A DNA stretch of 64,000 nucleotides from an uncultured Helicobacter sp. (GTDB lineage Bacteria; Campylobacterota; Campylobacteria; Campylobacterales; Helicobacteraceae). The stretch spans positions 271-64,270 of the forward strand of contig CAMWUR010000004.1 of assembly GCA_947177485.1 (NCBI GenBank), read 5' to 3'. Shown here piece by piece: positions 21,715 through 52,699 of this stretch; the stretch's first letter is position 1; each line of letters begins with the position of its first letter. The notes beneath the pieces were generated by a model, which did no database searches, was not told the DNA's origin, and saw only the letters and a list, made by a program, of their open reading frames with translations. Made by a program: the position numbers and the translations under genes.

Positions 21715-21716
21715 TA

Positions 21717-22364: not shown

Positions 22365-22793
22365 TTAGCGAATCCGTTTGATTGTATGATGATTGAGTCG
22401 ATAGATTTTTGAAGGTGCGCGTTCGCATAGCGGATTCTCGCGCTCAAAGACGCAAATTCTTGCTGAACGTAGCGCAAAATCCATGCAAAATCTCTCGCCG
22501 CTTTTGTTTGCCGAACTGCTGAACAACCCATCGAATCGTTGCAAGAACCCAGCATGTGGACAATCGGCGACTAATCGCACAGCGCGATTGCGAATGATGA
22601 ACGTGCAGCGGCGGCTCTTGCGCACGCGAGTGGCAAATTTTTTGGGCACGCGCACGACTTCGCGCAAATTTGATAGCCGCGCTGTTGTCCAGACAAAGGG
22701 CTTGTTGGTCTCGCGATTTTTTGCACGCGCGATTGTGTCGGGATTGTGTGCCAAAAAACCTGCTGTGGTATCTGTTTGGGCAAGATAGAGCAT
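22365..22793 (-). CDS. YrdC/Sua5-domain protein (TsaC-like)
   Basis: ORF 22365..22829. The internal start [13 protein letters not shown] overlaps the carB stop (TAATG). The TDT..G motif is present. Confidence 0.5.
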   Translation of the reverse strand: MLYLAQTDTTAGFLAHNPDTIARAKNRETNKPFVWTTARLSNLREVVRVPKKFATRVRKSRRCTFIIRNRAVRLVADCPHAGFLQRFDGLFSSSANKSGERFCMDFALRSARICVFERENPLCERAPSKIYRLNHHTIKRIR

Positions 22794-25700: not shown

Positions 25701-26065
25701 CGAATCGCCTCGGGCTTTGCACCCAAAAATTCAACACCCTCGAGCATACCTTTTTCATGCATTGACATCGCGACATTCAGTGCCGTTTGCCCGCCCATCG
25801 TGGGCAGAATCGCATCGATTTTTTCGCGTTCGATGATGTTGGCAATCACCTCTTCGGTAATCGGCTCGATGTAGGTGCGGTGCGCAAACTCGGGGTCTGT
25901 CATGATTGTTGCGGGGTTGGAGTTGATGAGCACAACCTTATAGCCCAGTGCTTTGAGCGTTTTTGCCGCTTGTGTGCCAGAGTAGTCAAACTCGCATGCT
26001 TGCCCAATTACAATGGGACCAGAACCAATCAATAGAATCGTGTGAATATCGTTTCGTTTGGGCAT
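22793..26065 (-). CDS. carB: carbamoyl-phosphate synthase large subunit
   Basis: 1090 aa with duplicated ATP-grasp halves. Confidence 0.97.
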
Positions 26066-32299: not shown

Positions 32300-32300
32300 C

Positions 32301-32795
32301 CTAGCGCCGCTGCCTCGCCTGCGACACAGCCGCCATTACCCAACGCGCGAGATTCTGCTGGATATACTGCGCGGGCGATGGGTTAGCAAGGCGTGGGGGG
32401 TCATAGACTTTGATATAGTTTGCGAGGCTGGTTGTGTTATTTATTGAAAAGATTTCAAAAGGATTGCGTCCCATTTCTGAAAGATTCCCATTTCCGTCTT
32501 TGAGGTTGTGGATATAGATTCCAAACAATCCCTTGCGCTCACTCCATGCCTTTTCGATTTCGTATTGCACCCACCGCGAATCGAAAGTTTCTGCGCCAAT
32601 CAAGACAACCACGCAGGGGCGATTCTGCATCGCCTTGTCTATGGTGTTTTTCACGCGGTAGTCCCCCTCCCATTTGAGATTCTCCCATTCATCTGCGCTA
32701 TAAATGCTCTGCCCTTGGACGATTGGGTTTTTTCGGATTTGTTGCAATCTCCAGTAATCATTTTCATAATGGAAGCTATAATAAACATGTTGCAT
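32301..32795 (-). CDS. TIR-like domain protein (DUF1863 / Thoeris ThsB-like), solitary
   Basis: ORF 32301..32843, probable start MQHVYYSFHYEND. The pattern VYYSFHYEND...VVVLIG..T..S.WV.YEI..A fits the MTH538/ThsB TIR-like family. Confidence 0.65.
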   Translation of the reverse strand: MQHVYYSFHYENDYWRLQQIRKNPIVQGQSIYSADEWENLKWEGDYRVKNTIDKAMQNRPCVVVLIGAETFDSRWVQYEIEKAWSERKGLFGIYIHNLKDGNGNLSEMGRNPFEIFSINNTTSLANYIKVYDPPRLANPSPAQYIQQNLARWVMAAVSQARQRR

Positions 32796-32942
32796 ACGTT
32801 TCCTTCTTGTCTCAATCTTGTGAAGCATATTTGATGCCATCATAACAAATTTTTGTTTTTTCTTTGCTTATGCGACATCGGGAGATTCATAATGGATTCA
32901 AGGAAATTTATATATGATTATGTACAAAAAAGGACATGCGCC

Positions 32943-33536: not shown

Positions 33537-36094
33537 GCAAGAGCGACAAAACACGGGCGAGAGTGGATTTGCAAAGGCGACAGGCTTTGCACACAATGGC
33601 GAAGGGCGCAGCATTTTTCGCGCTTATTCCTTTCGTGGGTTGCGGCAAAGAGGAGCAAAAGGCGGCACAGAAAGCCGTGCAAGAGGCTGTGGCAGAATCC
33701 ACTGCAAAATTTAGCACGGATTTAGTTCTAAATGGTGATGTCGTTACGGGCGCGCACTGGGGCGTGCTCAAAGCCACGCTTAAAGACGGCAAGATTGTGA
33801 GCAGCGGCAATGCGCTAACAAGCGACATTAAGAATCCGCTACATAGCACCATTGCCGACCTCGTCTATGCGCCTACGCGCGTCAAATACCCGATGGTACG
33901 CAAATCCTACCTCGAGAATCCGAGCAGCCCAAAGCCCGAGCTGCGCGGCGCTGACGAATGGGTGCGCGTGAGCTATGAGGAGGCGATTGCGCTGATTGCG
34001 CGCGAGCTCAAGGCGACATATAAGCAAAAGGGCAAGGAGGGCGTGTTCGCGGGCAGCTATGGCTGGAAAAGCAGCGGAAATATGCACAATGCACGCATTT
34101 TGTTGCAGCGATTTATGGGCATGGCGGGCGGCTATGTGGGCACAACGGGCGATTATTCGACTGGTGCTTCGCAGGTGATTATGCCCTATGTGCTCGGCAC
34201 AATCGAGGTTTATGAGCAGCAAACGAGCTATCCTGTCGTGCTTGAGCATAGCAAGGTGATTGTGATTTGGGGCGCAGACCCGATTTTGACGCTCCGCAAC
34301 GCATGGACGACCAACGAGGGCAGGGGCCTCGAGTTTTTCGCCGCGCTCAAGAAATCGGGCAAAACGATTCTGTGTATCGACCCCGTGCGCAACGCGACAT
34401 GCGACTATCTCGGCGCGGAGTGGATTGCACCCGTGCCCAACACCGATGTGGCGCTGATGCTTGGAATCGCGCACACAATGCTCGTAAGCGGGCGATACGA
34501 TAAAGAGTTTGTCGAGACTTATACCGAAGGATTCGAGCAGTTCCGCGATTATGTGCTTGGTATGACAGATGGTATCGCCAAAGACAGCACGTGGGCAGCG
34601 GCGATTTGCGGCGTTGAGCAGTCAAAAATCGAATCGCTCGCCGCACTGTTTTTTGACAACCGCACGATGTTCATGTCAGGCTGGGGTATGCAACGCGCAC
34701 ACCACGGTGAGCAGCCGCATTGGGCGCTTATTTCGCTTTGTGCACTGATTGGGCAGATTGGCTTGCCCGGCGGCGGCTTTGGCTTGTCGTATCATTACAG
34801 CAATGGCGGCTCGCCAACGGCTGTCGCGCCTGTGATTGGCGGCATGAATCTCGGCAATGCGACAAGTGGTGGCGCAGAATGGCTCATGCAAGGCAGCGAA
34901 TACAATTTCCCGCTCGCACGAATTGCCGATGCGTTGCAGAATCCGGGCAAGACGATTGACCACAACGGCAAGAAAATCACCTATACCGACATCGACTTCA
35001 TCTATTGGGCTGGCGGCAATCCGCTTGTGCATCACCAAAACACAAATGAGCTTCTCAAGGCTTGGCGCAAGCCGCGCACAATTGTTGTGAATGAAATTTA
35101 TTGGACGCCCACAGCGCGGCATGCCGACATCGTGATGCCTATCACGACAAGCTATGAGCGCAACGATATTTCGATGAGCGGGGATTATTCGAATCTGCAT
35201 ATTGTGCCGATGAAACAGCTTGTCGCGAAGCAGTTTGAGTCGGTTGATGACTATCAGATTTTTTGTGATTTGGCAAAGGCTTTTGGCATCTATGACGCGT
35301 TTAGCGAGGGCAAGGACGAAATGCAATGGATTGCCGAATTTTACGAACAGGCGCGGCGACAATCACAGTCGCTATTGATTGAAATGCCAAGTTTTGATGA
35401 TTTTTGGAAGGCGAACAAGCCCTTGCAGTTCAATGTGCCCTTTGAATCGGACGAATGGGTGCGCTATGCCGAGTTTCGCGAAGACCCGATTCTGAACCCG
35501 CTTGGCACAGAATCGGGACGAATCGAGCTCTACTCGCGCACGATTGAGGCGATGGGCTATGACGATTGCCCACCGCATGCGAGCTGGCTTGAGCCCATCG
35601 AGTGGCAAGGAATGGCAGACAAGCCCGCCGAGTTTGCGCTGATTACCTCGCACCCTGCATTGCGCCTGCATTCACAGCTGGCAAACACATCGTTGCGCGA
35701 GGAATACGCGATTGCGGGGCGCGAGCCGCTGTGGATAAACACCAAAGACGCCGCGGCGAAGGGCATTCAGACAGGTAATGTCGTGCGTGTGAGCAACGCG
35801 CGCGGCGAGGTTTTGGCTGGTGCGTTTGTAACGGACGATATTCGCGAAGGCGTTGTGCGGCTTTGCGAGGGGGCGTGGTATGACCCAATGGAGGCGGGCG
35901 AAATCGGCAGCATGTGCAAGAATGGCTCGTCCAATGTTCTCACGCTCGACTTGCCGACATCGAAGCTTGCGAATGGAAACATCGCGCATACGGGGCTTGT
36001 TGATGTGCAAAAATATGACGGCGAGGCTGCGCCCGTTGGAGTCTTTGAAGCGCCCAAAAATATTAGCCTTTGGTCGCTGCATAAAACGTTGTGA
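33533..36094 (+). CDS. molybdopterin-dependent TMAO/DMSO/biotin-sulfoxide-type reductase (TorA/BisC family), Tat-exported
   Basis: ORF 33377..36094. The start at 33533 gives a twin-arginine leader (LQRRQALHTMAKGAAF). 853 aa of molybdopterin oxidoreductase. Confidence 0.85.
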   Translation: MSKSDKTRARVDLQRRQALHTMAKGAAFFALIPFVGCGKEEQKAAQKAVQEAVAESTAKFSTDLVLNGDVVTGAHWGVLKATLKDGKIVSSGNALTSDIKNPLHSTIADLVYAPTRVKYPMVRKSYLENPSSPKPELRGADEWVRVSYEEAIALIARELKATYKQKGKEGVFAGSYGWKSSGNMHNARILLQRFMGMAGGYVGTTGDYSTGASQVIMPYVLGTIEVYEQQTSYPVVLEHSKVIVIWGADPILTLRNAWTTNEGRGLEFFAALKKSGKTILCIDPVRNATCDYLGAEWIAPVPNTDVALMLGIAHTMLVSGRYDKEFVETYTEGFEQFRDYVLGMTDGIAKDSTWAAAICGVEQSKIESLAALFFDNRTMFMSGWGMQRAHHGEQPHWALISLCALIGQIGLPGGGFGLSYHYSNGGSPTAVAPVIGGMNLGNATSGGAEWLMQGSEYNFPLARIADALQNPGKTIDHNGKKITYTDIDFIYWAGGNPLVHHQNTNELLKAWRKPRTIVVNEIYWTPTARHADIVMPITTSYERNDISMSGDYSNLHIVPMKQLVAKQFESVDDYQIFCDLAKAFGIYDAFSEGKDEMQWIAEFYEQARRQSQSLLIEMPSFDDFWKANKPLQFNVPFESDEWVRYAEFREDPILNPLGTESGRIELYSRTIEAMGYDDCPPHASWLEPIEWQGMADKPAEFALITSHPALRLHSQLANTSLREEYAIAGREPLWINTKDAAAKGIQTGNVVRVSNARGEVLAGAFVTDDIREGVVRLCEGAWYDPMEAGEIGSMCKNGSSNVLTLDLPTSKLANGNIAHTGLVDVQKYDGEAAPVGVFEAPKNISLWSLHKTL

Positions 36095-36110
36095 TAGAGC
36101 TTATTGGTGT

Positions 36111-36137
36111 TAGGATTGTTGCTTGCAGGCAATCCTA
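36111..36137 (+). terminator. hairpin downstream of the reductase gene
   Basis: TAGGATTG-11 nt-CAATCCTA inverted repeat, with no clear U-tail. Confidence 0.35.
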
Positions 36138-36237
36138 AGTGCGCATGTTGTTTGGGGGGAGATTATGTAATGTTTTATGTTATGTCCAATAATTCAAAAT
36201 TGCTAATTAAAAGAGAGTGATAAAATAATACATTGCT

Positions 36238-36353
36238 ATTTGCCGCGTTGCTCACAAGCGGCGCAACTATTTGCTTGGAATCTCCTTTTTGATAGGCTTC
36301 CATTGCGCCTTGTGTGATTCCAAAAACTAAAATCCATTTCATGGTTAAATCCT
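36238..36353 (-). repeat. degenerate copy C of the ilvD 3' end plus spacer, abutting the M1 stop codon
   Basis: tttgccgcgttgctcacaagcggcgcaac..ttgcttggaatctcc..gataggcttccattgcgcc aligns with 40510..40600 and 38806..38900. It lacks the first ~30 nt and has a 9-nt deletion. Confidence 0.85.
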
Positions 36354-37541
36354 TTATCCAACCTTACTACCAATGTCCTTAAAGCTAGAATCTAACATGC
36401 AATTCTCCAAGCTTCTTTGGGAAAATAAAAATCGTCCATCACATACAAAACCTAGTTCCTCCCAATCTACATTATTGAGTCTCTCGCATAATTCTTGTAA
36501 GATATTAGAATCTACTTCAAATTTTGGAAAAACCGCCAAAATAGAGCCATCATAAGCCTTGCAAGAATGCAGGAAAAAAGGCTTTTTATTTCGAGTTTTG
36601 GTATTAACATAGATTCGTGGTTGTTCGCTTTTGTGGTAGTCTCTGCCCCATTGCCACCAATTGTTTTCATTAAATCTTTTAATTTTTCTTTGTAATAATT
36701 TTTGTTTAAATTCTTGCAAATATACACAATCTTTGGCATAGATTCCATAAATCATTCTTTTTGTTTTGCCACTTTTTGCCGTAGTAGAATTTACAAAATC
36801 TACATTACCCCATTGTTGATTTGCAAAAATAGAATCTGCTCCACTTACCGCACCAACTTTCACAAAAAATAATGAGCTAAAGGGAATACTATAAGATTTT
36901 TTAGTAAAAAGAATCTGCCCATTGATACAACTAAATTCCCTCAAACATTGGGTTTTTCGCCCAAAATTACCTTTTTCAAATCTCCATATCGCACAATTTG
37001 GTTGAGCCTTGTTAAAAATCTTTTTATCTCCCAAATCTATAAAATCTGTTATGCTACCTTGCGAGAATAAAAACTTATTGAGTTTTATGCTTGCTGTGCT
37101 TTTTAGAAAATCTCTAGGGGTGATAAAAATTAATTCCCCCTTATCTTTTAAATGCAAGATGGACTTATAGATAAAAAATAAATACAAATTCGAGCGAGAA
37201 TCAAAGATATTCTTATAGGCATTTAAAAGAAATTTTGTAGAATCCAAAATATCTTGATAACGCACATAAGGAGGGTTGCCAATAATGCAATCAAATTTTT
37301 CACTCACAGGATAGCTAAAAAAATCAACTTTCAACACAGACTTATCGCAAACTACTTTAGAATCTAATTCTATGCCTACTTTGTTGTTGGGTAAATTTTC
37401 AAAAAATGCTCCATTTCCACAGCTTGGCTCTAAGAATCTAGGATTAGAAAGCTTTTTTGTGCTTTGAATGAGATTTAACATATCATTGACAATATGCGGT
37501 GGTGTGAAAACTTGCCCTAAATTTTCTACATCAAGATTCAT
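36354..37541 (-). CDS. gamma-class N6-adenine DNA methyltransferase (M1), paralog of 20518..21714
   Basis: 395 aa with GQVFTPPHIV, EPSCGNGAF and GNPPYV. Collinear with the 398-aa paralog along its whole length. AT-rich. Confidence 0.85.
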   Translation of the reverse strand: MNLDVENLGQVFTPPHIVNDMLNLIQSTKKLSNPRFLEPSCGNGAFFENLPNNKVGIELDSKVVCDKSVLKVDFFSYPVSEKFDCIIGNPPYVRYQDILDSTKFLLNAYKNIFDSRSNLYLFFIYKSILHLKDKGELIFITPRDFLKSTASIKLNKFLFSQGSITDFIDLGDKKIFNKAQPNCAIWRFEKGNFGRKTQCLREFSCINGQILFTKKSYSIPFSSLFFVKVGAVSGADSIFANQQWGNVDFVNSTTAKSGKTKRMIYGIYAKDCVYLQEFKQKLLQRKIKRFNENNWWQWGRDYHKSEQPRIYVNTKTRNKKPFFLHSCKAYDGSILAVFPKFEVDSNILQELCERLNNVDWEELGFVCDGRFLFSQRSLENCMLDSSFKDIGSKVG

Positions 37542-38154
37542 AAAAATATCTCCTAAAATGGAGGTAAGCTTCGGCTCTTAGCTTTAAGGATTGCTCAAAA
37601 GTTTCAAGCAAAAATCTTTTTGCACTTTCAAAGTCTCTCGCAACAATATTGCGATTGTTATCCCATTTTGCTTGAAAGGGTAAATTATTCCCATTTGGCA
37701 AAATAGATTCTAGGCTTTTTAGCGAAGTGGCAAAAACATCGCTGGGATTATCCTTATTAATAATCAAAAAACAATAATCTTTTGTGTTTTCTTGGATATT
37801 TTCTTTAAGATTTTTAAAATAGCAATCCCAACTTACACCATTACCAAAAGGCGGAATCTTGCCTGTTAGGGCATAATATATTCCAAGTTTGCAATTAAGA
37901 TTATCGGTAGTTTTTGTTGTGCTTACCTTGATATTAACAGGGTAAAAACTATTATTTTCCTCAAAGCTGAAATCTATCCAATCACGCATATTTGGACGAT
38001 TGATTGCAAAGTTTGATTCTAAGCATTTAAAAATTTCATCCTCATTAAAGGCAGAATTTATCCTACCATCTCGACTTTGCTTACTTAAAGCAATTGGGTT
38101 TATTTGTAAAAACTCTACAATTTGAATAAGCAAATTTGGCATAACTTGGCTCAT
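37531..38154 (-). CDS. putative type II restriction endonuclease (R1) partnered with M1
   Basis: 207 aa with an 11-nt overlap with M1. Possible PD-(D/E)xK-like core DWIDFSF...VNIKVS (MspI/HinP1I-style D..N.K). Assigned by context only. Confidence 0.45.
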   Translation of the reverse strand: MSQVMPNLLIQIVEFLQINPIALSKQSRDGRINSAFNEDEIFKCLESNFAINRPNMRDWIDFSFEENNSFYPVNIKVSTTKTTDNLNCKLGIYYALTGKIPPFGNGVSWDCYFKNLKENIQENTKDYCFLIINKDNPSDVFATSLKSLESILPNGNNLPFQAKWDNNRNIVARDFESAKRFLLETFEQSLKLRAEAYLHFRRYFYES

Positions 38155-38169
38155 TTTATTTCTTTATCC

Positions 38170-38778
38170 TCAAACTTGGTTCTGCTGTCTATCTACATTC
38201 TCTGCAGCCAATCTTTCTTGTATAATTTCAATTAGAACTTCGCACAATACATCAAAATAGCCATATTCAAAGTAAAAATACTCCACCTCCTCTGTTCGTG
38301 CCCTTTCACTCATATATCTAAATTGAGTAAAGATGTCTTGATTATTTACCAAAAGACTTTTTATGTCTTTTTCTCTTTTTTTATTAGGTGGTGTAGAATT
38401 ATTAAATTTTTCTTTTGAGTTTTCAGAGGTAACACCACGAATAAATAACTCTGGTATTTTCTTGTCTCGAATGTAAATATTATATTTGTTGCAAATTGCA
38501 TCTTGAGTATCTTTGTCTATTTTTTCAAATAGTTTATATAAATCATGTGTTCTATCTGGCTTCTCTCCACTTTCTCCCGAAATAATAGTTTTCAATAGTA
38601 GCTCAATAGCTAAACCATAATTGGTAGCTGATGCAAAAAGCTCAAATGGAGTCATGCTTCGTTTTGCCTCATGTATTTGAGTGTAGATTCTAGCTAACGA
38701 CCAAAAACAAATTGCGCTTCCATATGAAGTTATATAATCATTTTCCTCACACCCTTTAAATTTTTTATTTGTTGCCAT
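38170..38778 (-). CDS. HEPN-like domain protein (202 aa) immediately upstream of R1-M1
   Basis: ORF 38170..39009 trimmed to the ATG at 38778, the first codon after repeat B. YGLAIELLLKTIISG..KPDRTHDLYKLFEKI and FTQFRYMSE resemble the HEPN (PF05168-type) helices. Confidence 0.5.
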   Translation of the reverse strand: MATNKKFKGCEENDYITSYGSAICFWSLARIYTQIHEAKRSMTPFELFASATNYGLAIELLLKTIISGESGEKPDRTHDLYKLFEKIDKDTQDAICNKYNIYIRDKKIPELFIRGVTSENSKEKFNNSTPPNKKREKDIKSLLVNNQDIFTQFRYMSERARTEEVEYFYFEYGYFDVLCEVLIEIIQERLAAENVDRQQNQV

Positions 38779-38996
38779 TTTCACATCTCCGTCTTCAACG
38801 CCGCGCCATTTGCGGCATTGCTCACAAGCAGCGCATAGCGGCGCAACCATTTGCTTGGAATCTCTTTTTTGATAGGCTTCCATTTGCCTTACATGCTTCC
38901 AAAAACCAAAGTCCATTTCATAATTAAATCCTTTATCCAACTTTGCTGCTAATGTTCTTAAGCTAGAATCTAGCATACAATTCTCTAGACTTCGTA
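38776..38996 (-). repeat. copy B: ilvD 3' end (about 125 bp) + spacer + 3' fragment of an M1-type methylase gene
   Basis: 38776..38903 is near-identical to 40478..40603. 38904..38996 aligns with 36325..36415 (spacer plus M1 codons RSLENCMLDSS...) with a 1-nt deletion that removes the stop. Confidence 0.9.
38933..38996 (-). pseudogene. 3'-terminal remnant of an M1-type methyltransferase gene
   Basis: It translates as RSLENCMLDSS, as does the M1 C-terminus. It is frameshifted after DSS and truncated at the HNH-gene stop. Confidence 0.8.
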
Positions 38997-38998
38997 CA

Positions 38999-39574
38999 TT
39001 ATTTTTCATATTGCCTCAAATATTCTATTACTTTTTCTAAAAATTTTGGATTATCTTTAAACCTACCAAGTCCAGTATTGCAACTATCGCATATCCACTC
39101 TCTACCTTCACCTGTTTCATGATTATGGTCTCGAACAAGATTTGCTGTAATTCCTACAATGCTTCTTTTTTCACAAATTGGACATGTGAAAACACTGCCT
39201 TTTGGTGGCGCAAGTTTGTCCATTCGTTTCTTTTCAGCAATAGAAAGCTTTACGCCATCAATTTGTTTTCTACATTCTCTGCAACTCGGTCTTGTTGTTT
39301 TGTTGCCTTTTGCATCGGTTTGATTTATTTCAAAATTATCGGTATTTTTTAAGATATGACAAATATTGCAAATTTTAACATCAAACCCCTTTCCTGTTTT
39401 ATAAATATCAATAGATTCCAAATCTTCATATTTCATTTTCTTAATCTCATTAACGCCTATAAATAAAACCATTGCAAAATTTCCATTAAGAGCCTTAACA
39501 ATACCCACAGAATTTTCTGCTATATTGTCAATTTGTTTATTCGCAATTACAAAACTATCGATATTTATATGCAT
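38999..39574 (-). CDS. HNH / endonuclease VII-type (beta-beta-alpha-Me) nuclease with Cys4 zinc sites; putative restriction endonuclease (R2)
   Basis: 191 aa with VRDHNHETGEGREWICDSCNTGLGRF and the pairs CNIC, CRECR and CPIC. Its size and layout recall Hpy99I. 10-nt overlap with M2. Confidence 0.6.
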   Translation of the reverse strand: MHINIDSFVIANKQIDNIAENSVGIVKALNGNFAMVLFIGVNEIKKMKYEDLESIDIYKTGKGFDVKICNICHILKNTDNFEINQTDAKGNKTTRPSCRECRKQIDGVKLSIAEKKRMDKLAPPKGSVFTCPICEKRSIVGITANLVRDHNHETGEGREWICDSCNTGLGRFKDNPKFLEKVIEYLRQYEK

Positions 39575-40380
39575 AAGACATTCCTATATTTATCTAGTCT
39601 TTTTCTTGCCATCTCAATATATTCTTGACTTATATCTACTCCTATAAAATTTCTTTTGGCTAAAAAAGCCATTTTACATGTTGTGCCAGAGCCACACATC
39701 GGGTCAAATACAATATCTCCTTCATTGCTCCAAGATAAAATATGGTCTTGTGCAAGCTGTTCAGGATACATAGCTGGATGTTGAAAGGCTTCCCTATCAT
39801 TTGTTGTTCCACCAAGTCCTACTGCATAATACCAAATGTTCGTTTTTGTTTTTTCTTTTTTTAGCTCCTTTAGAACCTTATGGTTTTTTCCATCTGATTT
39901 TTTGTTGGCAACCAACATTTCTAAGCCGCTTCTTGCAGTTTCTTCTTTTAGAGGATTAAAGGTTTTTGGCTTTCCTTTAGAAAAAACAAACATATATTCA
40001 TAACTATTGGTATAAGCATTTGAGCGCATAAAAGGCGTATTTTTCTTTGCATATATCATTGTGTCATGCACGTTAAACCCAATTTGTTGAAAATATAAAG
40101 CCTGTTTAAAGCTCGTTAAACTTTTATTGCCATTTTTGATTTTATCGCCCACAACCCAAACAACAACACCGCCATTTTTTGTAATTCTAAAAATTTCATT
40201 GGCAATATTTTCAAAATCAAAGTTATATCCATTGTAATCTCTTAGGTCATCATAAGGCGGAGAGGTTACAATCAAATCAATACAGTTATTGCTTACGTTG
40301 TTTTGCATAAAATGTACACAATCATCTACATAAAATTTATTTAATAAATGATTATAGTTTTTGTAAATTGTTTGTGTCAT
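39565..40380 (-). CDS. beta-class N4-cytosine/N6-adenine DNA methyltransferase (M2)
   Basis: 271 aa with DLIVTSPPY (SPPY motif IV) followed by the C-terminal FDPMCGSGTT (motif I). Confidence 0.85.
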   Translation of the reverse strand: MTQTIYKNYNHLLNKFYVDDCVHFMQNNVSNNCIDLIVTSPPYDDLRDYNGYNFDFENIANEIFRITKNGGVVVWVVGDKIKNGNKSLTSFKQALYFQQIGFNVHDTMIYAKKNTPFMRSNAYTNSYEYMFVFSKGKPKTFNPLKEETARSGLEMLVANKKSDGKNHKVLKELKKEKTKTNIWYYAVGLGGTTNDREAFQHPAMYPEQLAQDHILSWSNEGDIVFDPMCGSGTTCKMAFLAKRNFIGVDISQEYIEMARKRLDKYRNVLCI

Positions 40381-40477
40381 TTTTGCTCCTTTCGTCTCAA
40401 TATAATATATCTATAATTGTACTATCCTAATATAATTTGCAACAAATACGGAGTGTTTGTAGCACCAAAAGTCAATG

Positions 40478-40603
40478 CATTTTCACATCTCCGTCTTCAA
40501 CACCGCGCCATTTGCGGCATTGCTCACAAGCAGCGCATAGCGGCGCAACCATTTGCTTGGAATCTCCTTCTTGATGGGCTTCCATTGCGCCTTACGTGCC
40601 TCC
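40478..40603 (-). repeat. copy A: the native ilvD 3' end (the duplicated target)
   Basis: It is the functional end of ilvD including its stop codon, and is near-identical to 38776..38903. Confidence 0.9.
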
Positions 40604-42789
40604 AAAACAGCGGAATCCACGAGCAGCTCGAGCGTCCCCTTGCTCACCGAAATCGCGATTCTATCGCCGTCTTCAATCAGCGCAATGAGCCCCCCCTCTG
40701 CCGCTTCGGGGCTGACATGCCCAATGCAGCCCCCACGTGTCGCGCCGCTAAAGCGCCCGTCCGTAATCAGCGCAACCGATTCTCCAAGTCCCATTCCCAT
40801 AATGAGACTTGTGGGGGTTAGCATTTCTTGCATTCCGGGTCCTCCCTTTGGTCCCTCGTAGCGAATCACAACGACATTCCCCGCCTTTACCTTGCCACCC
40901 GCAATGCCCTTAATCGCCTCATCTTGCGAGTTGAAACACACCGCACTTCCCTCAAACTCTTTCATAGATTCCGCCACTGCGGCGACTTTGAGCACCGCGC
41001 CCTCACGCGCAAGATTGCCATAGAGGATTTTTAATCCACCCATTTGCGAATACGCGTTTTCATTGTGGCGAATGATATTAGAATCCGTAATCTCCGCCCC
41101 CGCAATGCGCTCACCCAGTGTCTCGCCTGTAATCGTGAGCGCGTCAAGATAGAGCGTATGCGGCGGAAGTTGTGGTAAATCAAGGATAAAAAAATCGCTA
41201 ATTTCTTTAGGATAAAACGGAGCATAAGCCACAGGCAATTGCTCATAAGGAACTTGCCTAAAGCCCATTTTTGTATAAAATTCCCGATTTTGCTGCGTGG
41301 CTTCGGGCGTATCAAAAATAAGCTCGCCAAAGTTTAATCCACCCGTATAAGTATTAATATAGCCCTTATTAGGACTATCGGCAATCAATGTTTTATAATG
41401 CGATCGCTCAAGAAATGCAAACAACTCGGCACAAAGTCGATTTACAAGAGAAATGGACGAATAATATCTTTGATGAATGATGAATTTTTTTAGGATTCCA
41501 ATGCCTTTTTGCTCTTCATAAACACCGATACAACCAACGACTTCTTCGCCCTCAAGAGCAATCCAAAATGCACCATTTTTATAATAATCAGCAATATTAT
41601 GCAAGTCAAGTTGAGTTTTAAGATATGCCTTACGCCATAAATCATCGTGATTGTCGTAATTCAAAACAAGAGAAATCACAGCCTCTTGATATTTTTGCAA
41701 TTCTTTTGTAAATCGCATAATGCGAATCGAATCTGTTGTTCCGCTTGTTTTAAAATCTAGCTCAAAGGCAGCGTTACCCCTTTTTGCCACCTCATTCATC
41801 ACGGCACTGACGCCACCGGCGCGGTGAATATCCTCCATATGCACGTTACTAAGGGCAGGGGCGATTTTGGCGATGTGTGCCACTTGGGAGGCAAGTGCGT
41901 TGATAGAATCTAGGTTAAAATCCACCTCCGCTTCTTTGGCGATTGCGAGCATATGCAGAATCGTATTCGTGCTTCCACCCATTGCCATATCTACGACAAA
42001 GGCGTTATGCACAGCTTTTTGATTCAAAATATTGCGGAATCTAAACTTTTCGCTTTTTTGCTCATCAAGCGCGATTTCTACGATTCTACGCGCTGCTTTG
42101 CGTAAAAGCTCCTCGCGCTCCTTGCTAAGGGCTAGAATCGTCCCATTTCCGGGCAGCGCAACACCCATAGCCTCACAAAGCGTATTCATAGAGTTTGCGG
42201 TAAACATTCCACTACAACTTCCGCCACTTGGGCACGCATTGCATTCTATTTCGTGTAACCTTTTCTCATCAATCTTGCCCTCATTAAACGCGCCCACCGC
42301 TTCAAAGGCAGAGTTTAAATCTAGTATTGTGCCGTCCTCTAGCTTGCCCGCACGCATTGGACCGCCACTCACAAAGATTGTCGGCACATTCACGCGCAAA
42401 GCACCCATAAGCATTCCGGGCACGATTTTATCGCAGTTTGGGATACAAATCATCGCGTCCAAACTATGCGCATTCATCATTGTTTCAATAGAATCCGCAA
42501 TCAGCTCGCGGCTTGGCAGAGAGTAGAGCATACCGCTATGCCCCATTGCGATTCCGTCATCTACACCGATGGTGTTAAACTCAAAGGGCACGCCACCCGC
42601 AGTGCGAATCTCCTCTTTGATGATTTGCGCGTATTTATTTAAGAAAAAATGCCCGGGAATAATGTCAATATAACTATTTGCAATGCCGATAAAGGGCTTG
42701 TTAAAATCCTCGTCCTTTAGACCGGTAGCGCGTAATAAACTTCTGTGGGGGGCTCTTTGGAATCCCTTTTTAATGGTGTCGCTTCGCAT
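40483..42789 (-). CDS. ilvD: dihydroxy-acid dehydratase carrying a 206-aa internal GNAT-like insertion
   Basis: 768 aa. The IlvD/Edd motifs ([29 protein letters not shown]) are intact on both sides. Minus the insertion the protein is 562 aa. Confidence 0.9.
41155..41772 (-). other. in-frame 618-bp AT-rich insertion encoding a GNAT-type acetyltransferase-like domain within ilvD
   Basis: It lies between ..[10 protein letters not shown] and [11 protein letters not shown]... The insert contains [38 protein letters not shown] and [13 protein letters not shown] (GNAT beta4-alpha3 and motif B patterns). Confidence 0.7.
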
Positions 42790-47381: not shown

Positions 47382-48281
47382 GTGAAAAAGACACTTTTGC
47401 TCGGCGCAGTTGCCTATGACCCAAAGGTTGTGCCCATCTGGGATATTATCCGTGACTATGCAAACGCGGGAGATTTTGGAATCGGGCTGGATTATGTCCT
47501 GTTTAGCAATTATGAACGACAAGTTGATTCGCTTCTCAAGGGGCATATCGATGTGGCTTGGAATACAAATGTCGCGTGGATTCGCACATTGCACGCGACA
47601 AACAATGCAGCGCGCGCTCTTATCATGCGCGACACCGATATTGACTTTACGACAAAGTTTGTCGCACTCAAAGATAGTGGAATCCAAACCCTCGTCGACC
47701 TCAAGGGCAAGCGCTTTGGGCTCGGCAGCCGCGATTCGGCGCAAGCGGCGATTATGGGGTTGTATTATCTGCAACAAGCAAAGATTGTACCTGAAATCAC
47801 CGAGTTCCACTCGCCCGATGAATGCGGGCGCGGGCGCAGCGATGAGATTCGCGCAGCAGAGCTTAAGGTTGTGCGCCACAACAGCGACTTGGGCAAGCAC
47901 GGCGACACGGGGCGCAGCGAGTTTGATGTGCTTGATAGCATTAAGCGCGGCGAGCTGGACGCGGGCGCGATTGGCTCAAGCACGTGGATTCGTATTTTGC
48001 AAGAGGGCAGCTACCCCGAGATTGCGAGCTTTTGGAGCAGCCCGGGCTATTGCCATTGCAATTTTTCGGTGCTGCCAAGCTTTGATTTTGGGCTTGGCGA
48101 GACGTTTGCGCAGATGTTGCTTTCGCAAAACGAGCGCAAAGACGACCCGATGATTAGCAAGATGATGAGCATGGAGGGGCTGAACAAGTGGGTGCGCGTT
48201 GGCGAAGAGCAACTGCGCGGGTATGACGCGATTTATACGGCGATGAGAGAGCAGAATCTGCTGGAGAATGCGTCTCTCTAA
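47382..48281 (+). CDS. PhnD/phosphonate-binding-like periplasmic-binding-fold protein with no signal peptide
   Basis: ORF 47328..48281. The GTG at 47382 is preceded by AAGGAG. The GAVAYDPKV...DVAWNTNVAW pattern is present. Confidence 0.55.
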   Translation: MKKTLLLGAVAYDPKVVPIWDIIRDYANAGDFGIGLDYVLFSNYERQVDSLLKGHIDVAWNTNVAWIRTLHATNNAARALIMRDTDIDFTTKFVALKDSGIQTLVDLKGKRFGLGSRDSAQAAIMGLYYLQQAKIVPEITEFHSPDECGRGRSDEIRAAELKVVRHNSDLGKHGDTGRSEFDVLDSIKRGELDAGAIGSSTWIRILQEGSYPEIASFWSSPGYCHCNFSVLPSFDFGLGETFAQMLLSQNERKDDPMISKMMSMEGLNKWVRVGEEQLRGYDAIYTAMREQNLLENASL

Positions 48282-48292
48282 TCTTTCATCAT

Positions 48293-48329
48293 ATAAGAGG
48301 GCAGAATCTAGCTATTCTGTTCCTCTTAT
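48293..48329. terminator. bidirectional hairpin between convergent genes, at the right edge of core DNA
   Basis: ATAAGAGG-GCAGAAT-ctagct-ATTCTGT-t-CCTCTTAT, an imperfect stem of about 14 bp. Confidence 0.55.
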
Positions 48330-48333
48330 CCTC

Positions 48334-48603
48334 TTAGAACAGCTCGCTATGGCTACCAAGACGCATTGCCAAAAGTTCTAAATATTCATTATTTATTTTA
48401 TAAATTAAAATAAGGTCGGGTCTAATATGGCAATCTCGGCAACCTTTAAAATTACCTACTAGTGCATGGTCATGATATTTATCTTCCAAAATTTCCTTTT
48501 TGGCAAGTTTGTCAAGAATTTTGAGTACTTGTTCTTTATCGCTTTGGGCGAGTTTTTTAAAAGATTTTTTAAATTTTTTTGTAAAGGTAATAGAATATGT
48601 CAT
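48334..48603 (-). CDS. type II TA toxin, YafQ/RelE-family mRNA interferase (copy 1)
   Basis: 89 aa with HDHALVGNFKGCRDCHIRPDLILIY...GSHSELF. Confidence 0.85.
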   Translation of the reverse strand: MTYSITFTKKFKKSFKKLAQSDKEQVLKILDKLAKKEILEDKYHDHALVGNFKGCRDCHIRPDLILIYKINNEYLELLAMRLGSHSELF

Positions 48604-48845
48604 GATTCTAAATCCGCCTTCAATTCTTCTATGCTATGAAAAGTTTTCAATGTGCCCTTTTTGCGTTTTCTTTCTATTTCTTTTATTGCCTTTTTGAGCC
48701 TTTTTTCTGCCTTTGGATTTAGGGTATAATTTGCTGCTGCACAAATGGGGCATTCCTCTTGAATCTGAAGTTTTGGATTAAAAGCCTTGAGGCTCTCTAA
48801 GACTCCCAAAACCTTAGAATCGGCATTTTTGACAACGAGTGTCAT
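48600..48845 (-). CDS. cognate antitoxin (copy 1) with the shared MT(L/I)xLKNxD N-terminal module
   Basis: 81 aa with a 4-nt overlap with the toxin. The N-terminal ~28 aa are shared with 49209..49421 and 50812..51003. Confidence 0.7.
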   Translation of the reverse strand: MTLVVKNADSKVLGVLESLKAFNPKLQIQEECPICAAANYTLNPKAEKRLKKAIKEIERKRKKGTLKTFHSIEELKADLES

Positions 48846-48894
48846 TTTTTCTCCTTTGTTTTTTGATGATGTCTTGTTTTGGCTTCATGTCGCT

Positions 48895-48936
48895 TTATTT
48901 GAGCAGGAATCCACATTTATAGACCTTTGATTTTGC
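48895..48936 (-). repeat. degenerate copy of the 3' end of gene 49461..50435
   Basis: It aligns with 49461..49502 at about two-thirds identity by eye. The core ATAGACCTTTG is identical, the stop codons align, and the translations are KVYKCGFLLK* versus KVYEYEFLLE*. Confidence 0.5.
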
Positions 48937-49206
48937 TTAAAATAGCTCACTATGGCTACTCACACGAACGCAAATGAGCACTAAAATATGTTCATATTTT
49001 TTATAGATTAAGAGCAAGTCAGGGCTGATATGGCATTCTCTGTGTCCCTGATAGAGACCGAATAGCGCATGGTCTCTATGACGTTCCTCTAGGGTTTCGT
49101 TGCGGGCAAGTTTTTCAATCATGCTATCAACAATATCGGCTTTACCTTGTTTTATTATTTTTTTGTAATCTTTTTTAAATTGTGATGTCCATTCTACCCG
49201 ATACAT
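48937..49206 (-). CDS. type II TA toxin, YafQ/RelE-family mRNA interferase (copy 2)
   Basis: 89 aa with RDHALFGLYQGHRECHISPDLLLIY...SSHSELF. Confidence 0.85.
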   Translation of the reverse strand: MYRVEWTSQFKKDYKKIIKQGKADIVDSMIEKLARNETLEERHRDHALFGLYQGHRECHISPDLLLIYKKYEHILVLICVRVSSHSELF

Positions 49207-49208
49207 TA

Positions 49209-49421
49209 TTAATCACCCAATAAAGCCTCTTTTGCTTCTTCCCACGAATCATAGGGCTTTCTTATGCCCTGTTTAATTTCTGTATAGATTGTTTCAGCCT
49301 CTGCCATTGCCTCTAATGTCTCTTGAGATATTTGAATAATCTCAAAATCTGGCTTTAAGATTTTCAGACTCTGAATGACATGCAACAATTCAATATCAAC
49401 ATTCTTCAAAACTAGTGTCAT
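49209..49421 (-). CDS. cognate antitoxin (copy 2) with the shared N-terminal module
   Basis: 70 aa, N-terminus MTLVLKNVDIELLHVIQSLKILKP. Confidence 0.7.
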   Translation of the reverse strand: MTLVLKNVDIELLHVIQSLKILKPDFEIIQISQETLEAMAEAETIYTEIKQGIRKPYDSWEEAKEALLGD

Positions 49422-49460
49422 TTTCTCTCCTTTGTTTTTGTATCGCTTTTTTGATTTTTG

Positions 49461-50435
49461 CTACTCGAGTAAAAACTCATATTCATAGACCTTTGGTTCA
49501 ATCTTTTTGGCGAGATTCTCGAGCTCATAGTTGAGATTCCCAATTAAATCTTTGTAATACGAATCTTTCGCCTTTTGTGGCGGATTCATTCTACCGCTCG
49601 CGCTTAGCCCTTGAAAATATGCCTTGATGTCATAGAGGCTTGCATTGGGATTATAGGGATTCTTAGAATCATGAAAATCTTGGCTATGGTAATATTGCCA
49701 AAGCTTGAGCCCCGCAGCAAAGACTGCCTTTGCCTCTTCGCTAAATTCTAAAGGCTCTGTGGGAATCAGATTTTCAACATAAAACGATTCCTCATCAAAG
49801 CCATTTTGTTCTTTTTTATTATGTTGAGTTGGCGCAACATCTCTCTTAAGGTTTTTGCGAGATTCTTCAGCTAGCGCTTCAGAATGACAAGCGGAGTCTT
49901 GTTTGATTTTGCCACTTATAAAACAAATCATGAAATCACTCTCAAACGCTTCTTTTGCGCCCACATCTGTTTCGGAAAATGGGATAAATGGATTTGTTCC
50001 CTCTTTGCTTGTAATGCGATTCTGCCCATGAAAAAGCATAAACGCGAGGCAATCATTTTGAAACTCTCTATCCTTTGCCCATTCCTTGTTTGGCATTAGG
50101 AATTGGTCGCGGTCGTTTATCCATGTGGCTTTGATACAATGGCGCACGGCGAAGTAAATGGAAACCAACATAATATTGTTTTTGGTAATTTTAAGTTTGG
50201 TTATTCCTTTAGCATTACCAACACCTTTTATAGAATCCCAAAAATTAATATTACAAAAATTACTATTTTGAAAATCTGTTCCTTTGCAACAAATTGTGCA
50301 AAGTTCTTGGGATTGCGTATCAACAAATTGTTTTATCCATTGATTAATGCTTTTTGCCTTGTCGTTTATATAAATCCTCTTTATCCCTAAAAATTCTCCA
50401 TTCCTATCAAACATATCAAGTCCTATTACTTTCAT
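49461..50435 (-). CDS. hypothetical protein; candidate detached target-recognition (C-terminal) part of the upstream nuclease-methylase
   Basis: 324 aa. Its start overlaps the Doc stop (ATGA). I recognised no catalytic motifs. Assigned by context only. Confidence 0.4.
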   Translation of the reverse strand: MKVIGLDMFDRNGEFLGIKRIYINDKAKSINQWIKQFVDTQSQELCTICCKGTDFQNSNFCNINFWDSIKGVGNAKGITKLKITKNNIMLVSIYFAVRHCIKATWINDRDQFLMPNKEWAKDREFQNDCLAFMLFHGQNRITSKEGTNPFIPFSETDVGAKEAFESDFMICFISGKIKQDSACHSEALAEESRKNLKRDVAPTQHNKKEQNGFDEESFYVENLIPTEPLEFSEEAKAVFAAGLKLWQYYHSQDFHDSKNPYNPNASLYDIKAYFQGLSASGRMNPPQKAKDSYYKDLIGNLNYELENLAKKIEPKVYEYEFLLE

Positions 50436-50815
50436 TGTGTCTCCAATAATTTTTTTAGTATTTTTTGTAAATCTTCTTTTGATATTTTGCCCTCTGCTAC
50501 AAAGACTACAATATCTTCTAATCTTTGATAAAAATCATCAGGTAAATGATTGGGACAATTGAGCTCTATAAACGCATTTGCTAGATAAATTGCAGTGCGC
50601 TTGTTTCCATCTGCAAAGGGGTGAAACTTCACACAGGCAAACATTAAATGTGTGAGTTTATCTAAAAAGTGAGGATAAAGTTCATCATTTTGAATTTGAC
50701 TCAAAGCAGAATCTAAAAGCCCGATTTGGCTTTTATTAAAACCCTTCAAGCCCCCCATTATTTCCATAATATCATCATGCAAGATAATTGCTTCATCAAG
50801 TGATAAATATTTCAT
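50432..50815 (-). CDS. Doc (death-on-curing) / Fic-family toxin
   Basis: 127 aa with the HPFADGNKRTA motif. Confidence 0.85.
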   Translation of the reverse strand: MKYLSLDEAIILHDDIMEIMGGLKGFNKSQIGLLDSALSQIQNDELYPHFLDKLTHLMFACVKFHPFADGNKRTAIYLANAFIELNCPNHLPDDFYQRLEDIVVFVAEGKISKEDLQKILKKLLETQ

Positions 50816-51003
50816 TTATCTTTTAATCTCTCAAATACTGCACGATTTTGCGGTTTATTTAGGTTTTGTTTCATTTTTTCTCGCAATAATGAAAATTCTT
50901 CTTTTTCCTCCCCTTTTTCAATAGTAAGTTTTGGATTCAAAGCCTGTAAGCTTTCAATCACTTGCAAAGTTGCAGAATCTACATTTTTAAGCGTTATTGT
51001 CAT
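50812..51003 (-). CDS. antitoxin for Doc carrying the same N-terminal module as the YafQ antitoxins
   Basis: 63 aa, N-terminus MTITLKNVDSATLQVIESLQALNPKL, with a 4-nt overlap with doc. Confidence 0.65.
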   Translation of the reverse strand: MTITLKNVDSATLQVIESLQALNPKLTIEKGEEKEEFSLLREKMKQNLNKPQNRAVFERLKDK

Positions 51004-51028
51004 TTTATCTCCTTTTTGCTATTATCAT

Positions 51029-52699
51029 TTATTGCTTGCCATTTTTGCTCAAATCCCAAACTAAGAATCCAATCGGAAATTGCCCCTTAACATTATCAAA
51101 AGTATCAGCTGGAACAATAAATCCTCCCTTAAACTCTGCCTTGAATAATTCTCTAAATTCAATAAAATTACTTGCATTCAGATATTTAAGTTTAGAAAAA
51201 CTTGCAAGTATGCAGTGTGGAATTTCTAAGTAAGTGCGTATAAAAAATTGCACAAAAAGTTCCCGTGTAGATTTTTTATATTTTTTGCCATATTGTTCCG
51301 AAACAAATGTTTGATTACTAACATTTATCTTGTTATTTGTTGTTTGTGTTATGGTTTTTGTACTAGCAGCTTCCGCATACGGCGGGTTGATAAAGATGAT
51401 GAGCTTTTTGCGTTTTTCTTTATCTTTGAGAATTTCTTGCAATTTTTTTGGAAGTTTAGAGTTTTGGCAGTTTCTGCAAGTAGAATCCAGCTTATCTTTA
51501 TGTTTTTCACAAGGCTTGTCGAAAAAACAATCATTCAAAAAATCAAATTGGAAAATGTGCCTTTCTAAAAGTGGCAAATGCTGATTTTTTGCAAGCTCTT
51601 TCATAATCTCCACATCTGCCTTATCGAGCGTTGAGGCATAAAAATTGCGTGGTTCGGTGAGGTTTGCAAACAGATTCCCTGTCCCTGCGGCACAATCCCA
51701 GACAATGTATTCACTCTGCCAATCTTCGCCTAACGCTTTAACAAGGTATTCTTGCGCCTTTTGCACCCAAACTTGTGGCGTAAAAAACGCCCCCTTGCGC
51801 TCGCGAATATCACTAGGCACGAGCAAATCGCGCCTATCGATGATATAATCCCAATAGATTTCTTTTGGAGGGCGCTCGTAGAGATTCCAAAACTCATTAT
51901 GGGCTTTTTGATTGTCTCTAAACGTTGCTGTGTCCTTTTGCTCCGACCCCATGAACGTGATGATTTTATTAAACTCATAATGTGTTTTTCTAAGCACAAC
52001 AAAGAGTTTATCTAGTAGGCTTTGATTCTCGATACTTAGCAAATCGGCGAGATAGAAATCCGCGTCCAAAATGCCCGAGCTTTTGGCAAGATTCCAATCA
52101 ATGCTAATAGAATCCTTCACACTTAAAAGCCATTTTTGATAAACATTTGTGAAATTATTCTTTGTGATTTGAATCCTATGCACATGCTCATTTTCGAGCG
52201 TGAAATTCTCCCTGATAAACTCGCGCAATTCTTTAGAATCATGCTCAAAATCAAATTGCAATTTCTTGGATTCCAAAATATCTTTTGACTTTGCATAGAG
52301 TTGCCTAAATTCCTTCGTGCTGTGGTCGCTCGGTGCGACATTCCAATTAAAATCATTTTGGCTAAAAATATCCATGATTTCATAATACGGAATAAACGCG
52401 ATTTTCTCGCAATCAAACGCGCCCAAGAAAAGCGGCGGGAGCTCGTTTTCAAATGTTCTTTCCTTGCCAATCGTTAGAATCAGCTGCACAAACGATTCCA
52501 CAATATCCGCTTTATTCCCCCTCTTTGCCTCTGCCCAAAGAAAATGGATTGCCTGAAACAATGTCTTGGCGCGATACGACACGCAAAAATCAATTTTGCC
52601 CATCGTTGACATGTCCAATCCCTTGAAAAAATCATGCGCGATATGGTTTTTCAAATCCTCTTCAGGCATATTTTGCGCATACATCAACCCCTCCTTCAC
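51029..52699 (-). CDS. gamma-class N6-adenine methyltransferase domain fused to an N-terminal PD-(D/E)xK-like region (type IIG/IIL-like, lacking a TRD)
   Basis: 556 aa with GAFFTPQVWV, VWDCAAGTGNL (motif I) and FINPPYAEA (motif IV). The N-terminus has IDF-x17-WAEAK (D-x19-E-x-K). Confidence 0.7.
   Translation of the reverse strand: MKEGLMYAQNMPEEDLKNHIAHDFFKGLDMSTMGKIDFCVSYRAKTLFQAIHFLWAEAKRGNKADIVESFVQLILTIGKERTFENELPPLFLGAFDCEKIAFIPYYEIMDIFSQNDFNWNVAPSDHSTKEFRQLYAKSKDILESKKLQFDFEHDSKELREFIRENFTLENEHVHRIQITKNNFTNVYQKWLLSVKDSISIDWNLAKSSGILDADFYLADLLSIENQSLLDKLFVVLRKTHYEFNKIITFMGSEQKDTATFRDNQKAHNEFWNLYERPPKEIYWDYIIDRRDLLVPSDIRERKGAFFTPQVWVQKAQEYLVKALGEDWQSEYIVWDCAAGTGNLFANLTEPRNFYASTLDKADVEIMKELAKNQHLPLLERHIFQFDFLNDCFFDKPCEKHKDKLDSTCRNCQNSKLPKKLQEILKDKEKRKKLIIFINPPYAEAASTKTITQTTNNKINVSNQTFVSEQYGKKYKKSTRELFVQFFIRTYLEIPHCILASFSKLKYLNASNFIEFRELFKAEFKGGFIVPADTFDNVKGQFPIGFLVWDLSKNGKQ

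Follow-up and report, generated by a model that had tools for sequence, protein, structure and literature searches.

In the window analyzed here, a 64,000-nucleotide (nt) stretch of DNA from an uncultured Helicobacter sp. (positions 271 to 64,270 of contig CAMWUR010000004.1, assembly GCA_947177485.1), two restriction-modification (R-M) units lie nested behind the 3' end of ilvD, the dihydroxy-acid dehydratase gene, and are interleaved with three copies of that gene end. Comparison with related genomes led us to the view that this island was probably stacked by homologous recombination between lineages, with the relic copy of the ilvD end that trails a cassette (T') likely to have served as a portable arm. 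By an ilvD scan, the window groups with enterohepatic, rodent-gut Helicobacter, H. rodentium and H. ganmani being examples.

A repeat search of the interval from 35 to 42 kb identified three direct repeats of the ilvD 3' end (T), designated copies A, B and C (Table 1). A 35-nt core of T, allowing up to 2 mismatches, occurred exactly three times in the window, compared with 0 expected from 100 shuffles. The copies have a common left boundary, TGGATT, and the unit measures approximately 137 to 142 nt. On the minus strand the order is ilvD; the methyltransferase and HNH-type nuclease genes M2 and R2; a stump of an M1-type methylase gene followed by copy B; an open reading frame (ORF), R1 and M1; and finally copy C. 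A preliminary description of this region had given the same order and the same three copies, with B and C each continuing into a spacer and an M1 end, and both points were borne out by the repeat search and alignment. Some of its measurements required correction, in that the unit is longer than the 125 nt proposed, copy C extends to 36336 rather than 36312, and the deletion in copy C is of 10 rather than 9 nt.

Copies A and B share approximately 140 nt, and B and C share approximately 100 nt together with 83 nt of stump and spacer. The 17-nt spacer and the M1 3' end precede both B and C, and this stretch is 83 to 85% identical between the two. Over 109 nt, copies A and B show 96% identity, with the differences unevenly spread: the right two-thirds of copy B is 99% identical to A and retains the ilvD frame intact to a TGA at 38781 to 38783, and the left third is 80% identical and contains a 1-nt frameshift deletion which is also present in the copies B of two related genomes, L005 and L010. 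Copy C is the oldest relic of T. It lacks the final ~25 nt before the ilvD stop, and its 10-nt deletion sits between two GCGCYGCT repeats. The stump had been described as frameshifted and cut off exactly at the stop of the HNH nuclease gene; the frameshift (a 1-nt deletion) and the adjacency were found as described, but the stump begins 3 to 8 nt beyond the R2 TAA.

The GC content of the island is 30 to 37%, compared with 42 to 59% in its flanks. A domain search and the gene calls revealed no integrase or transposase in the island or in the ~10 kb flanking each of its sides, in agreement with the preliminary description. Folding of T gave no significant hairpin or attC-like structure (z = -0.7 to -1.0 versus shuffled sequence), and promoter and terminator scans of the island gave no signal above chance.

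Table 1. Features of the ilvD-linked island, in window coordinates
Feature	Position	Strand	Remarks
ilvD, dihydroxy-acid dehydratase, 768 amino acids (aa), intact	40483..42789	-	Pfam ILVD_EDD_N and ILV_EDD_C; stop codon 40483-40485, inside copy A
Imported patch	39050..40750	-	ilvD end, leader, M2, most of R2
Copy A of T	40478..40619	-	functional ilvD end plus 5 nt past the stop
M2, N4/N6 DNA methyltransferase, 271 aa	39565..40380	-	Pfam N6_N4_Mtase, E=2e-44
R2, Hpy99I-like His-Me/HNH restriction endonuclease, 191 aa	38999..39574	-	Pfam SH3_17, His_Me_b4a2, Endonuclease_7; TAA stop 38999-39001
Stump, last ~63 nt of M1-type methylase gene	38933..38995	-	1-nt deletion
Spacer before copy B, 17 nt, AGGATTTAATTATGAAA	38916..38932	-	matches the spacer before copy C and 8 copies in other genomes
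Copy B of T	38776..38915	-	hybrid relic
Orphan ORF, 202 aa, weakly HEPN-like	38170..38778	-	ATG 2 nt after relic stop
R1, type II restriction endonuclease, 207 aa, PD-(D/E)XK fold, EcoRV/HincII type	37531..38154	-	fold comparison
M1, gamma-class N6-adenine DNA methyltransferase, TaqI-like, 395 aa	36354..37541	-	Pfam Eco57I and N6_Mtase; stop codon 36354-36356
Spacer after M1 stop, 17 nt	36337..36353	-	
Copy C of T	~36230..36336	-	relic, 10-nt deletion
Called ORF, 55 aa	36175-36342		spurious; crosses copy C relic in another frame

The ilvD flank was compared across genomes reached by the ilvD scan of GTDB species representatives and other sequences; most are species representatives and contigs of metagenome-assembled genomes (MAGs), designated here by L numbers. 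The empty, single-cassette and double-cassette alleles that the preliminary description had proposed to look for were all present among the relatives. Empty sites with a single T were found in L002, L004 (H. rodentium), L006 (H. ganmani), L014, L019 and L050. Alleles in which M2-R2 is the sole cassette, trailed by an M1 remnant, the spacer and T', were found in L009, L082 and L084-L091, with both flanks as in the window. The ORF-R1-M1 unit alone, followed by the spacer and T', occupied the site in H. typhlonius, R1-M1 alone was found in L012, where a remnant of the ORF start persists, and in H. pullorum R1-M1 was present at ilvD without T'. The double cassette was observed in the window and in L005, a mouse-gut MAG (MGBC110621) that represents another species-level genome and has the same colinear layout at 88% identity. 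In L010, M2-R2-stump-spacer-T' was stacked before an unrelated, PabI-like R-M system.

Apart from these units, eight or more R-M systems were found in the ilvD flank, and use of the site extends to at least 10 species. These other occupants include an EcoRV-like nuclease with a D12 methylase, an R.PabI-like nuclease with a methylase, HaeII with a C5 methylase fragment, a DpnII R-M system, a type I-like M and S pair, DUF6996/6997 proteins with a methylase, and a BsaWI fragment with a methylase. No integrase, transposase or IntI domain was detected among the cargo ORFs scanned in the islands of relatives. The lengths of the ilvD-end duplications at the flank were 46, 85 to 140, 170 (L013) and ~358 nt (L008), the last extending beyond the stop codon. 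The preliminary description would have been undermined had the region been ancestral and unchanging in related genomes; this allele series varies among relatives, and the ilvD flank is an R-M hotspot that is neither ancestral nor invariant.

A further location of the R1-M1 unit is behind guaA, where it lies 3 to 4 nt past the stop codon in Helicobacter sp. L101, H. rodentium (L095) and Campylobacter upsaliensis (L102). The guaA 3' end is duplicated over 97 nt at 94% identity in L101 (5899-5995 and 8933-9029) and over 57 nt at 84% identity in H. rodentium L095 (5892-5948 and 7524-7580). T' was not seen to have been carried with R1-M1 to loci other than ilvD; the guaA loci repeat guaA. The spacer was considered as a possible start of the UCP028583 gene, a third gene that follows M1 at the guaA loci, and this was rejected because the sequences are unrelated. 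No match to the spacer-T' junction was found in Joint Genome Institute (JGI) metagenome contigs.

The ilvD gene of the window is mosaic. Sliding identity showed nt 1-2000 to be 97 to 100% like L002, after which identity fell to 72 to 80%, and the last ~300 nt resemble L009 and L010. The patch from ~40750 to 39050 is 99 to 100% identical to the single-cassette allele of another species, L082, compared with 74 to 92% in its flanks, and the M2 proteins of L082 and L084-L091 are identical to that of the window. Judging from these identities, the patch is the product of a very recent inter-species recombination, and copy A falls inside it.

The junction between the R2 stop and the stump was identical in the window, L005 and L010. 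M1 remnants trail M2-R2 in four genomes and show two junction forms, the remnant in L009 being longer and internally deleted. The common junction indicates that M2-R2 overwrote most of an M1-bearing unit once and that the product then moved as a module; that an M1-bearing unit had been overwritten by the M2-HNH unit was already proposed in the preliminary description, and the remnants bear this out. The junction of copy B with the ORF in the window is the same as that of the functional ilvD end with the ORF in H. typhlonius, and the junction of copy B with the PabI-like system in L010 is the same as the junction of the ilvD end with PabI in L007 (H. mesocricetorum). Since these copy B junctions equal the junctions of functional ilvD ends, we interpret copy B as a former functional ilvD end. 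The 10-nt deletion of copy C is also present in the H. typhlonius copy, indicating that copy C was inherited with the cassette.

Foreign ilvD ends were not confined to the window. Identity matrices and sliding windows showed that ilvD of L005 and H. typhlonius is H. ganmani-like (88 to 100%) until ~160 nt from its end and then becomes type I, with 71 to 75% identity to H. ganmani from 119 to 60 nt before the end and 100% identity to each other; the type I end is native to the clade of L003, L009 and L010. Copy C of L005 begins with ~20 nt of cassette-type sequence and then becomes L002-like, and copy C of L012 is cassette-like on the left and 93% identical to its own ilvD end on the right. T is a duplicate of the resident target in L013 (96%), in L008 and in the right part of the L012 copy. 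This does not apply to L005 and H. typhlonius, whose functional ends are of foreign origin, and copy A of the window lies in the imported patch. These comparisons are best explained if the copies of T have different histories and were united by inter-lineage homologous recombination.

In H. typhlonius, the last 324 nt of the native, H. ganmani-like ilvD (L093, 11066-11389) was found inverted ~3 kb downstream of the cassette, a pattern that resembles duplication associated with inversion.

From these mosaics and junctions, we infer an order of events and a role for T' as a recombination arm, as follows. The ORF-R1-M1 unit would first have inserted right after the ilvD stop, with a long end duplication, in a type I lineage (the L003/L009/L010 clade). 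In one such allele, M2-R2 would then have taken the place of the ORF, of R1 and of most of M1 through illegitimate recombination, leaving the stump, spacer and T' at its right end. The resulting M2-R2-stump-spacer-T' module may have spread between species by natural transformation and a RecA-type double crossover, with ilvD as the left arm and T' pairing with the recipient's own ilvD end as the right arm. Such an event would place the module and a replacement ilvD end before the recipient's old end and its cassette, so that the old end would become copy B; cassettes would thereby become stacked, every additional "target duplication" combining donor and recipient sequence. Later exchanges would have patched the locus, the 1.7-kb patch (~40750-39050) being one example, and the T repeats could act as substrates for cassette loss or amplification. 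A circular intermediate with a single crossover would yield the same product as the double crossover.

In its most general form, we put forward only as a tentative proposal that the T' relic may be the mobility device of the cassette, a portable downstream homology arm. Through it, a normal double crossover following natural transformation could bring the cassette and a replacement gene end into any related species behind the corresponding housekeeping gene (ilvD here, guaA for R1-M1 elsewhere), with each transfer regenerating the duplication and letting cassettes stack. The four patterns predicted by a portable arm were all seen, namely, foreign functional ends, hybrid relics with variable crossovers, conserved junctions between a former end and the next cassette, and stacking.

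Several observations weigh against stacking by recombination through T'. The mechanism is read from mosaic patterns, mostly between species representatives and MAG contigs rather than between conspecific strains. No conspecific or isogenic empty site with the same right flank, marked by a molybdopterin oxidoreductase gene, was found; the empty sites belong to other species or to other right-flank contexts. A portable arm also leaves the very first T duplication unaccounted for, and first duplications have recurred independently at the ilvD locus with different boundaries. Gene conversion within a genome could mimic some of the hybrids, such as the right part of copy B that is 99% identical to A. 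An extra rearrangement is required for H. typhlonius, since neither of its copies of T is its own and its native end sits in inverted orientation at a distance of 3 kb. Finally, the demonstrable recent crossovers of the window lie in ilvD and R2, not in T'.

The preliminary description had held that the island was built in place by repeated duplication of its own ilvD end, that is, by two successive de novo insertions in one lineage, each duplicating the resident last ~125 bp of ilvD, with M2-HNH overwriting a local M1. Three direct copies beside R-M units without mobility genes would be expected from such a history, independent long target duplications do occur in relatives (170 nt in L013, ~358 nt in L008), and the near identity of the right part of copy B to A is compatible with it. 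This account is not supported by the comparison, however, and we now regard it as unlikely. The double layout also occurs in another species (L005), and the R2/stump junction is common to L005 and L010, in the latter on a different cassette. Copy A was imported, lying in a patch 99 to 100% identical to another species, the deletion in copy C is shared with H. typhlonius, and the junction of copy B with the ORF is that of a functional ilvD end elsewhere.

A history of local tandem duplication appears slightly less probable still. Here, unequal crossing-over would have duplicated ORF-R1-M1-spacer-T, M2-R2 would have replaced most of the first unit, and the single alleles would be later deletion derivatives. 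The stump, spacer and T do stand in the same order at B and C, single alleles could result from A-by-B or B-by-C recombination, and amplification of R-M units flanked by long repeats has been reported (Sadykov 2003, as cited in PMC2853133). However, the longer M1 remnant of L009, together with its different sequence between T' and the flank, means that its allele is not a simple B-by-C deletion. The stump and spacer of copy B, at 83 to 85% identity to those of copy C, are more diverged than the islands of the window and L005 are from each other (88%), and in L010 the stump module sits on a PabI-type cassette with a junction that matches the genuine ilvD end of L007.

We consider it very improbable that the island arose by site-specific integration, with T as an att site for a recombinase encoded elsewhere or, in an integron-like variant, as an attC analogue. 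The same gene end is reused in many species, and the incoming module brings a replacement 3' end, as integrase-driven elements do. Nevertheless, no integrase, transposase or IntI domain was detected among the island proteins scanned, T has no significant hairpin, and there is no fixed att core, the repeats being 46, 57, 85 to 140, 97, 170 and ~358 nt long, with one running past the stop codon. The crossover points within T vary among genomes, and elsewhere the R1-M1 unit uses guaA with a duplication of guaA.

The window derives from a short-read metagenome contig of the SPAdes type (ENA ERZ14208509 NODE_100), and assemblers can be misled by repeats of ~140 nt. The island is covered by Logan per-run contigs of three runs, two of which span, with 0 mismatches, copy C (36053-36468) and copy B with the stump and R2 stop (38601-39033); the repeats, whose collapse on reassembly would have spoken against the preliminary description, did not collapse. 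Another public assembly, GCA_029068565.1, agrees with the window at 100% identity across 10.4 kb, although it may derive from the same reads as the window. Given that the copies differ from one another, that the per-run contigs cross the B/R2 junction and copy C, and that L005, L010, L009 and H. typhlonius show the junctions independently, an artefact of mis-joined or chimeric repeats was excluded for practical purposes. In a mouse-gut metagenome of another study (a contig of run X4, matching window positions 36364-38832), ORF-R1-M1 was found at ~91% identity; other sequence follows the M1 stop there, without the spacer or T', and the contig breaks inside a copy of T.

Both Type II units are apparently intact and are predicted from their sequences to encode active enzymes. 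M1 matched M.TaqI in the PDB (E=9e-15) and MTase_II in PADLOC (E=1.6e-135). R1 had no match in searches against PDB sequences, Pfam, NCBIfam and PADLOC and was identified by fold comparison only: its AlphaFold model had a pLDDT (predicted local distance difference test) score of 89, and the top 43 Foldseek matches in the PDB were all HincII or EcoRV (probability up to 0.99-1.00, template modelling score ~0.4-0.5). The homologues of R1 carry the NCBI name "restriction endonuclease". R2 aligned over residues 5-191 with the Hpy99I structures 3fc3 and 3gox (E=5e-104). M2 adjoins the Hpy99I-like nuclease gene, its predicted partner, and the SH3-like, His-Me finger (beta4-alpha2) and EndoVII-like domains of R2 together with the adjacent methyltransferase are those of a Type IIP system of the Hpy99I type. 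The Hpy99I system itself has the same three domains and an adjacent N4/N6 methyltransferase, and comes from a different Helicobacter species. Hpy99I recognizes CGWCG.

The 202-aa ORF that precedes R1 is nearly an orphan, with only three clusters among 5.8 billion proteins. Its start at 38778 is conserved in L005 and H. typhlonius, although the ORF is frameshifted in H. typhlonius and deleted in L012. With respect to ilvD, R1 and the ORF begin 2 to 9 nt past the stop codon. It scored 21.6 bits against Pfam HEPN, below the cut-off of 22, with regard to the Rx4-6H motif of HEPN proteins only a conserved HDL/HNL motif was seen by eye in a three-sequence alignment, and its structure model had low confidence (pLDDT 59) and no fold match. 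We describe the product as weakly HEPN-like. Gene calls of 279 aa (38170-39009) and 268 aa were rejected as artefacts that run through copy B and the stump in other frames. For annotation, the 279-aa "HEPN" ORF and the 55-aa ORF can be flagged as artefacts of relic sequence.

Other features of these genomes were noted in passing. In the window, a second R-M locus lies on the minus strand at 19391-22355, just downstream of carB (22793-26065), another housekeeping gene, and comprises a 212-aa ORF unrelated to R1, a paralogue of M1 (398 aa, 73% identical) and an N6_N4 methylase that carries a RAMA domain; a search for a duplicated carB 3' end there was negative. Further accessory or defence-type genes were called on the matching contig at window positions ~32300-32800 and ~48000-52000, namely, two toxin ORFs of the ParE/YafQ type, a Fic protein and a ThsB-like TIR protein. 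The molybdopterin oxidoreductase gene that separates the island from the TIR gene in the window is missing from L005. In the ilvD gene of the window, the N- and C-terminal domains are separated by an in-frame insert of ~206 aa (aa ~340-545, window 41155-41780, minus strand) that shows a weak GNAT acetyltransferase signature (Acetyltransf_1, 21.9 bits versus a cut-off of 20.7). The insert is also present in L002 and, in diverged form, in L003; H. rodentium, H. ganmani, L005, L009 and L010 lack it, and shorter inserts (~45 aa) occupy the same position in L019, L050 and L077. H. rodentium has a 1375-aa protein with matches to GATase and several to GNAT, and the 3' end of its gene is the one duplicated behind R1-M1 at the guaA loci. 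In H. mesocricetorum L007, the EcoRV-type cassette is followed by a second copy (86%) of the beginning of the PabI-type methylase region (11704-11808 and 15830-15934), and this array contains further nested duplications in which ilvD is not involved.

The preliminary description had compared the island with R-M units that insert with long target duplication, and the comparison is apt, the island matching the class defined by Nobusato et al. (2000, Gene 259:99) and Furuta, Abe and Kobayashi (2010, PMC2853133). As set out in the latter paper, such inserts are small R-M units without a mobility gene, flanked by direct repeats of more than 30 bp that are present as one copy in genomes with an empty site; stop codons are often included in the repeats so that the target gene remains intact, and R-M units substitute for one another at a locus. 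That paper leaves the mechanism open, with double-strand breakage suggested only (Furuta 2010, NAR 38:2428, PMC2853133). In the window, the direct repeats flanking the inserts exceed 30 bp, R and M homologues occur together (M2 with R2 and M1 with R1), and the units, of 1.7 kb and 2.5 kb, are below 20 kb and have no mobile-element genes. The hosts are likewise naturally competent epsilonproteobacteria. Unlike in the class as described, several units are stacked here at one site, the site is in use in at least 10 species, and the flanking repeats in several genomes are foreign or hybrid rather than resident copies, which suggests spread by homologous recombination with the relic as an arm.

Three other systems offer partial parallels. 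Integrase-driven elements, such as tRNA-gene islands and the phage 21 and e14 elements at icd, carry a substitute 3' end of their target gene. The present island resembles them in supplying a new functional 3' end and displacing the old end as a far-side relic, but it has no integrase or fixed core, and its duplication lengths and crossovers vary. In outline it also resembles integron cassette arrays, with promoter-poor cassettes, a recurring element and a fixed anchor upstream; it differs in having no IntI, in that T is a gene fragment without attC-like structure, and in that the cassettes are multi-gene R-M units. The hpyIIRM cassette of H. pylori is reportedly lost via its direct repeats and regained by natural transformation. 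It too is an R-M unit bracketed by direct repeats, but it is a single unit in one species, whereas the ilvD locus has nested units, exchange between species and relics of a housekeeping-gene end, as known from sequence. An effect on gene content of the repeats flanking the hpyII R-M system is mentioned in PMC2194252, which cites Aras et al. (2001, Mol Microbiol 42:369).

A literature search for an ilvD-linked R-M hotspot in Helicobacter found no relevant report. R-M mobility of this kind is of a known type; what the locus adds is a series of alleles spanning several species, together with sequence-based evidence for partial import of the "duplications". Gene flow and phage defence are both shaped by R-M systems, and how units without mobility genes move has been unclear since 2000. 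The ilvD flank provides a natural allele series across rodent-gut Helicobacter species in which the crossover points can be read, and it supports recombination-driven modular assembly behind conserved gene ends. If the portable arm is correct, it would provide a concrete, testable mechanism for the long-unexplained insertion of R-M units with long target duplication.

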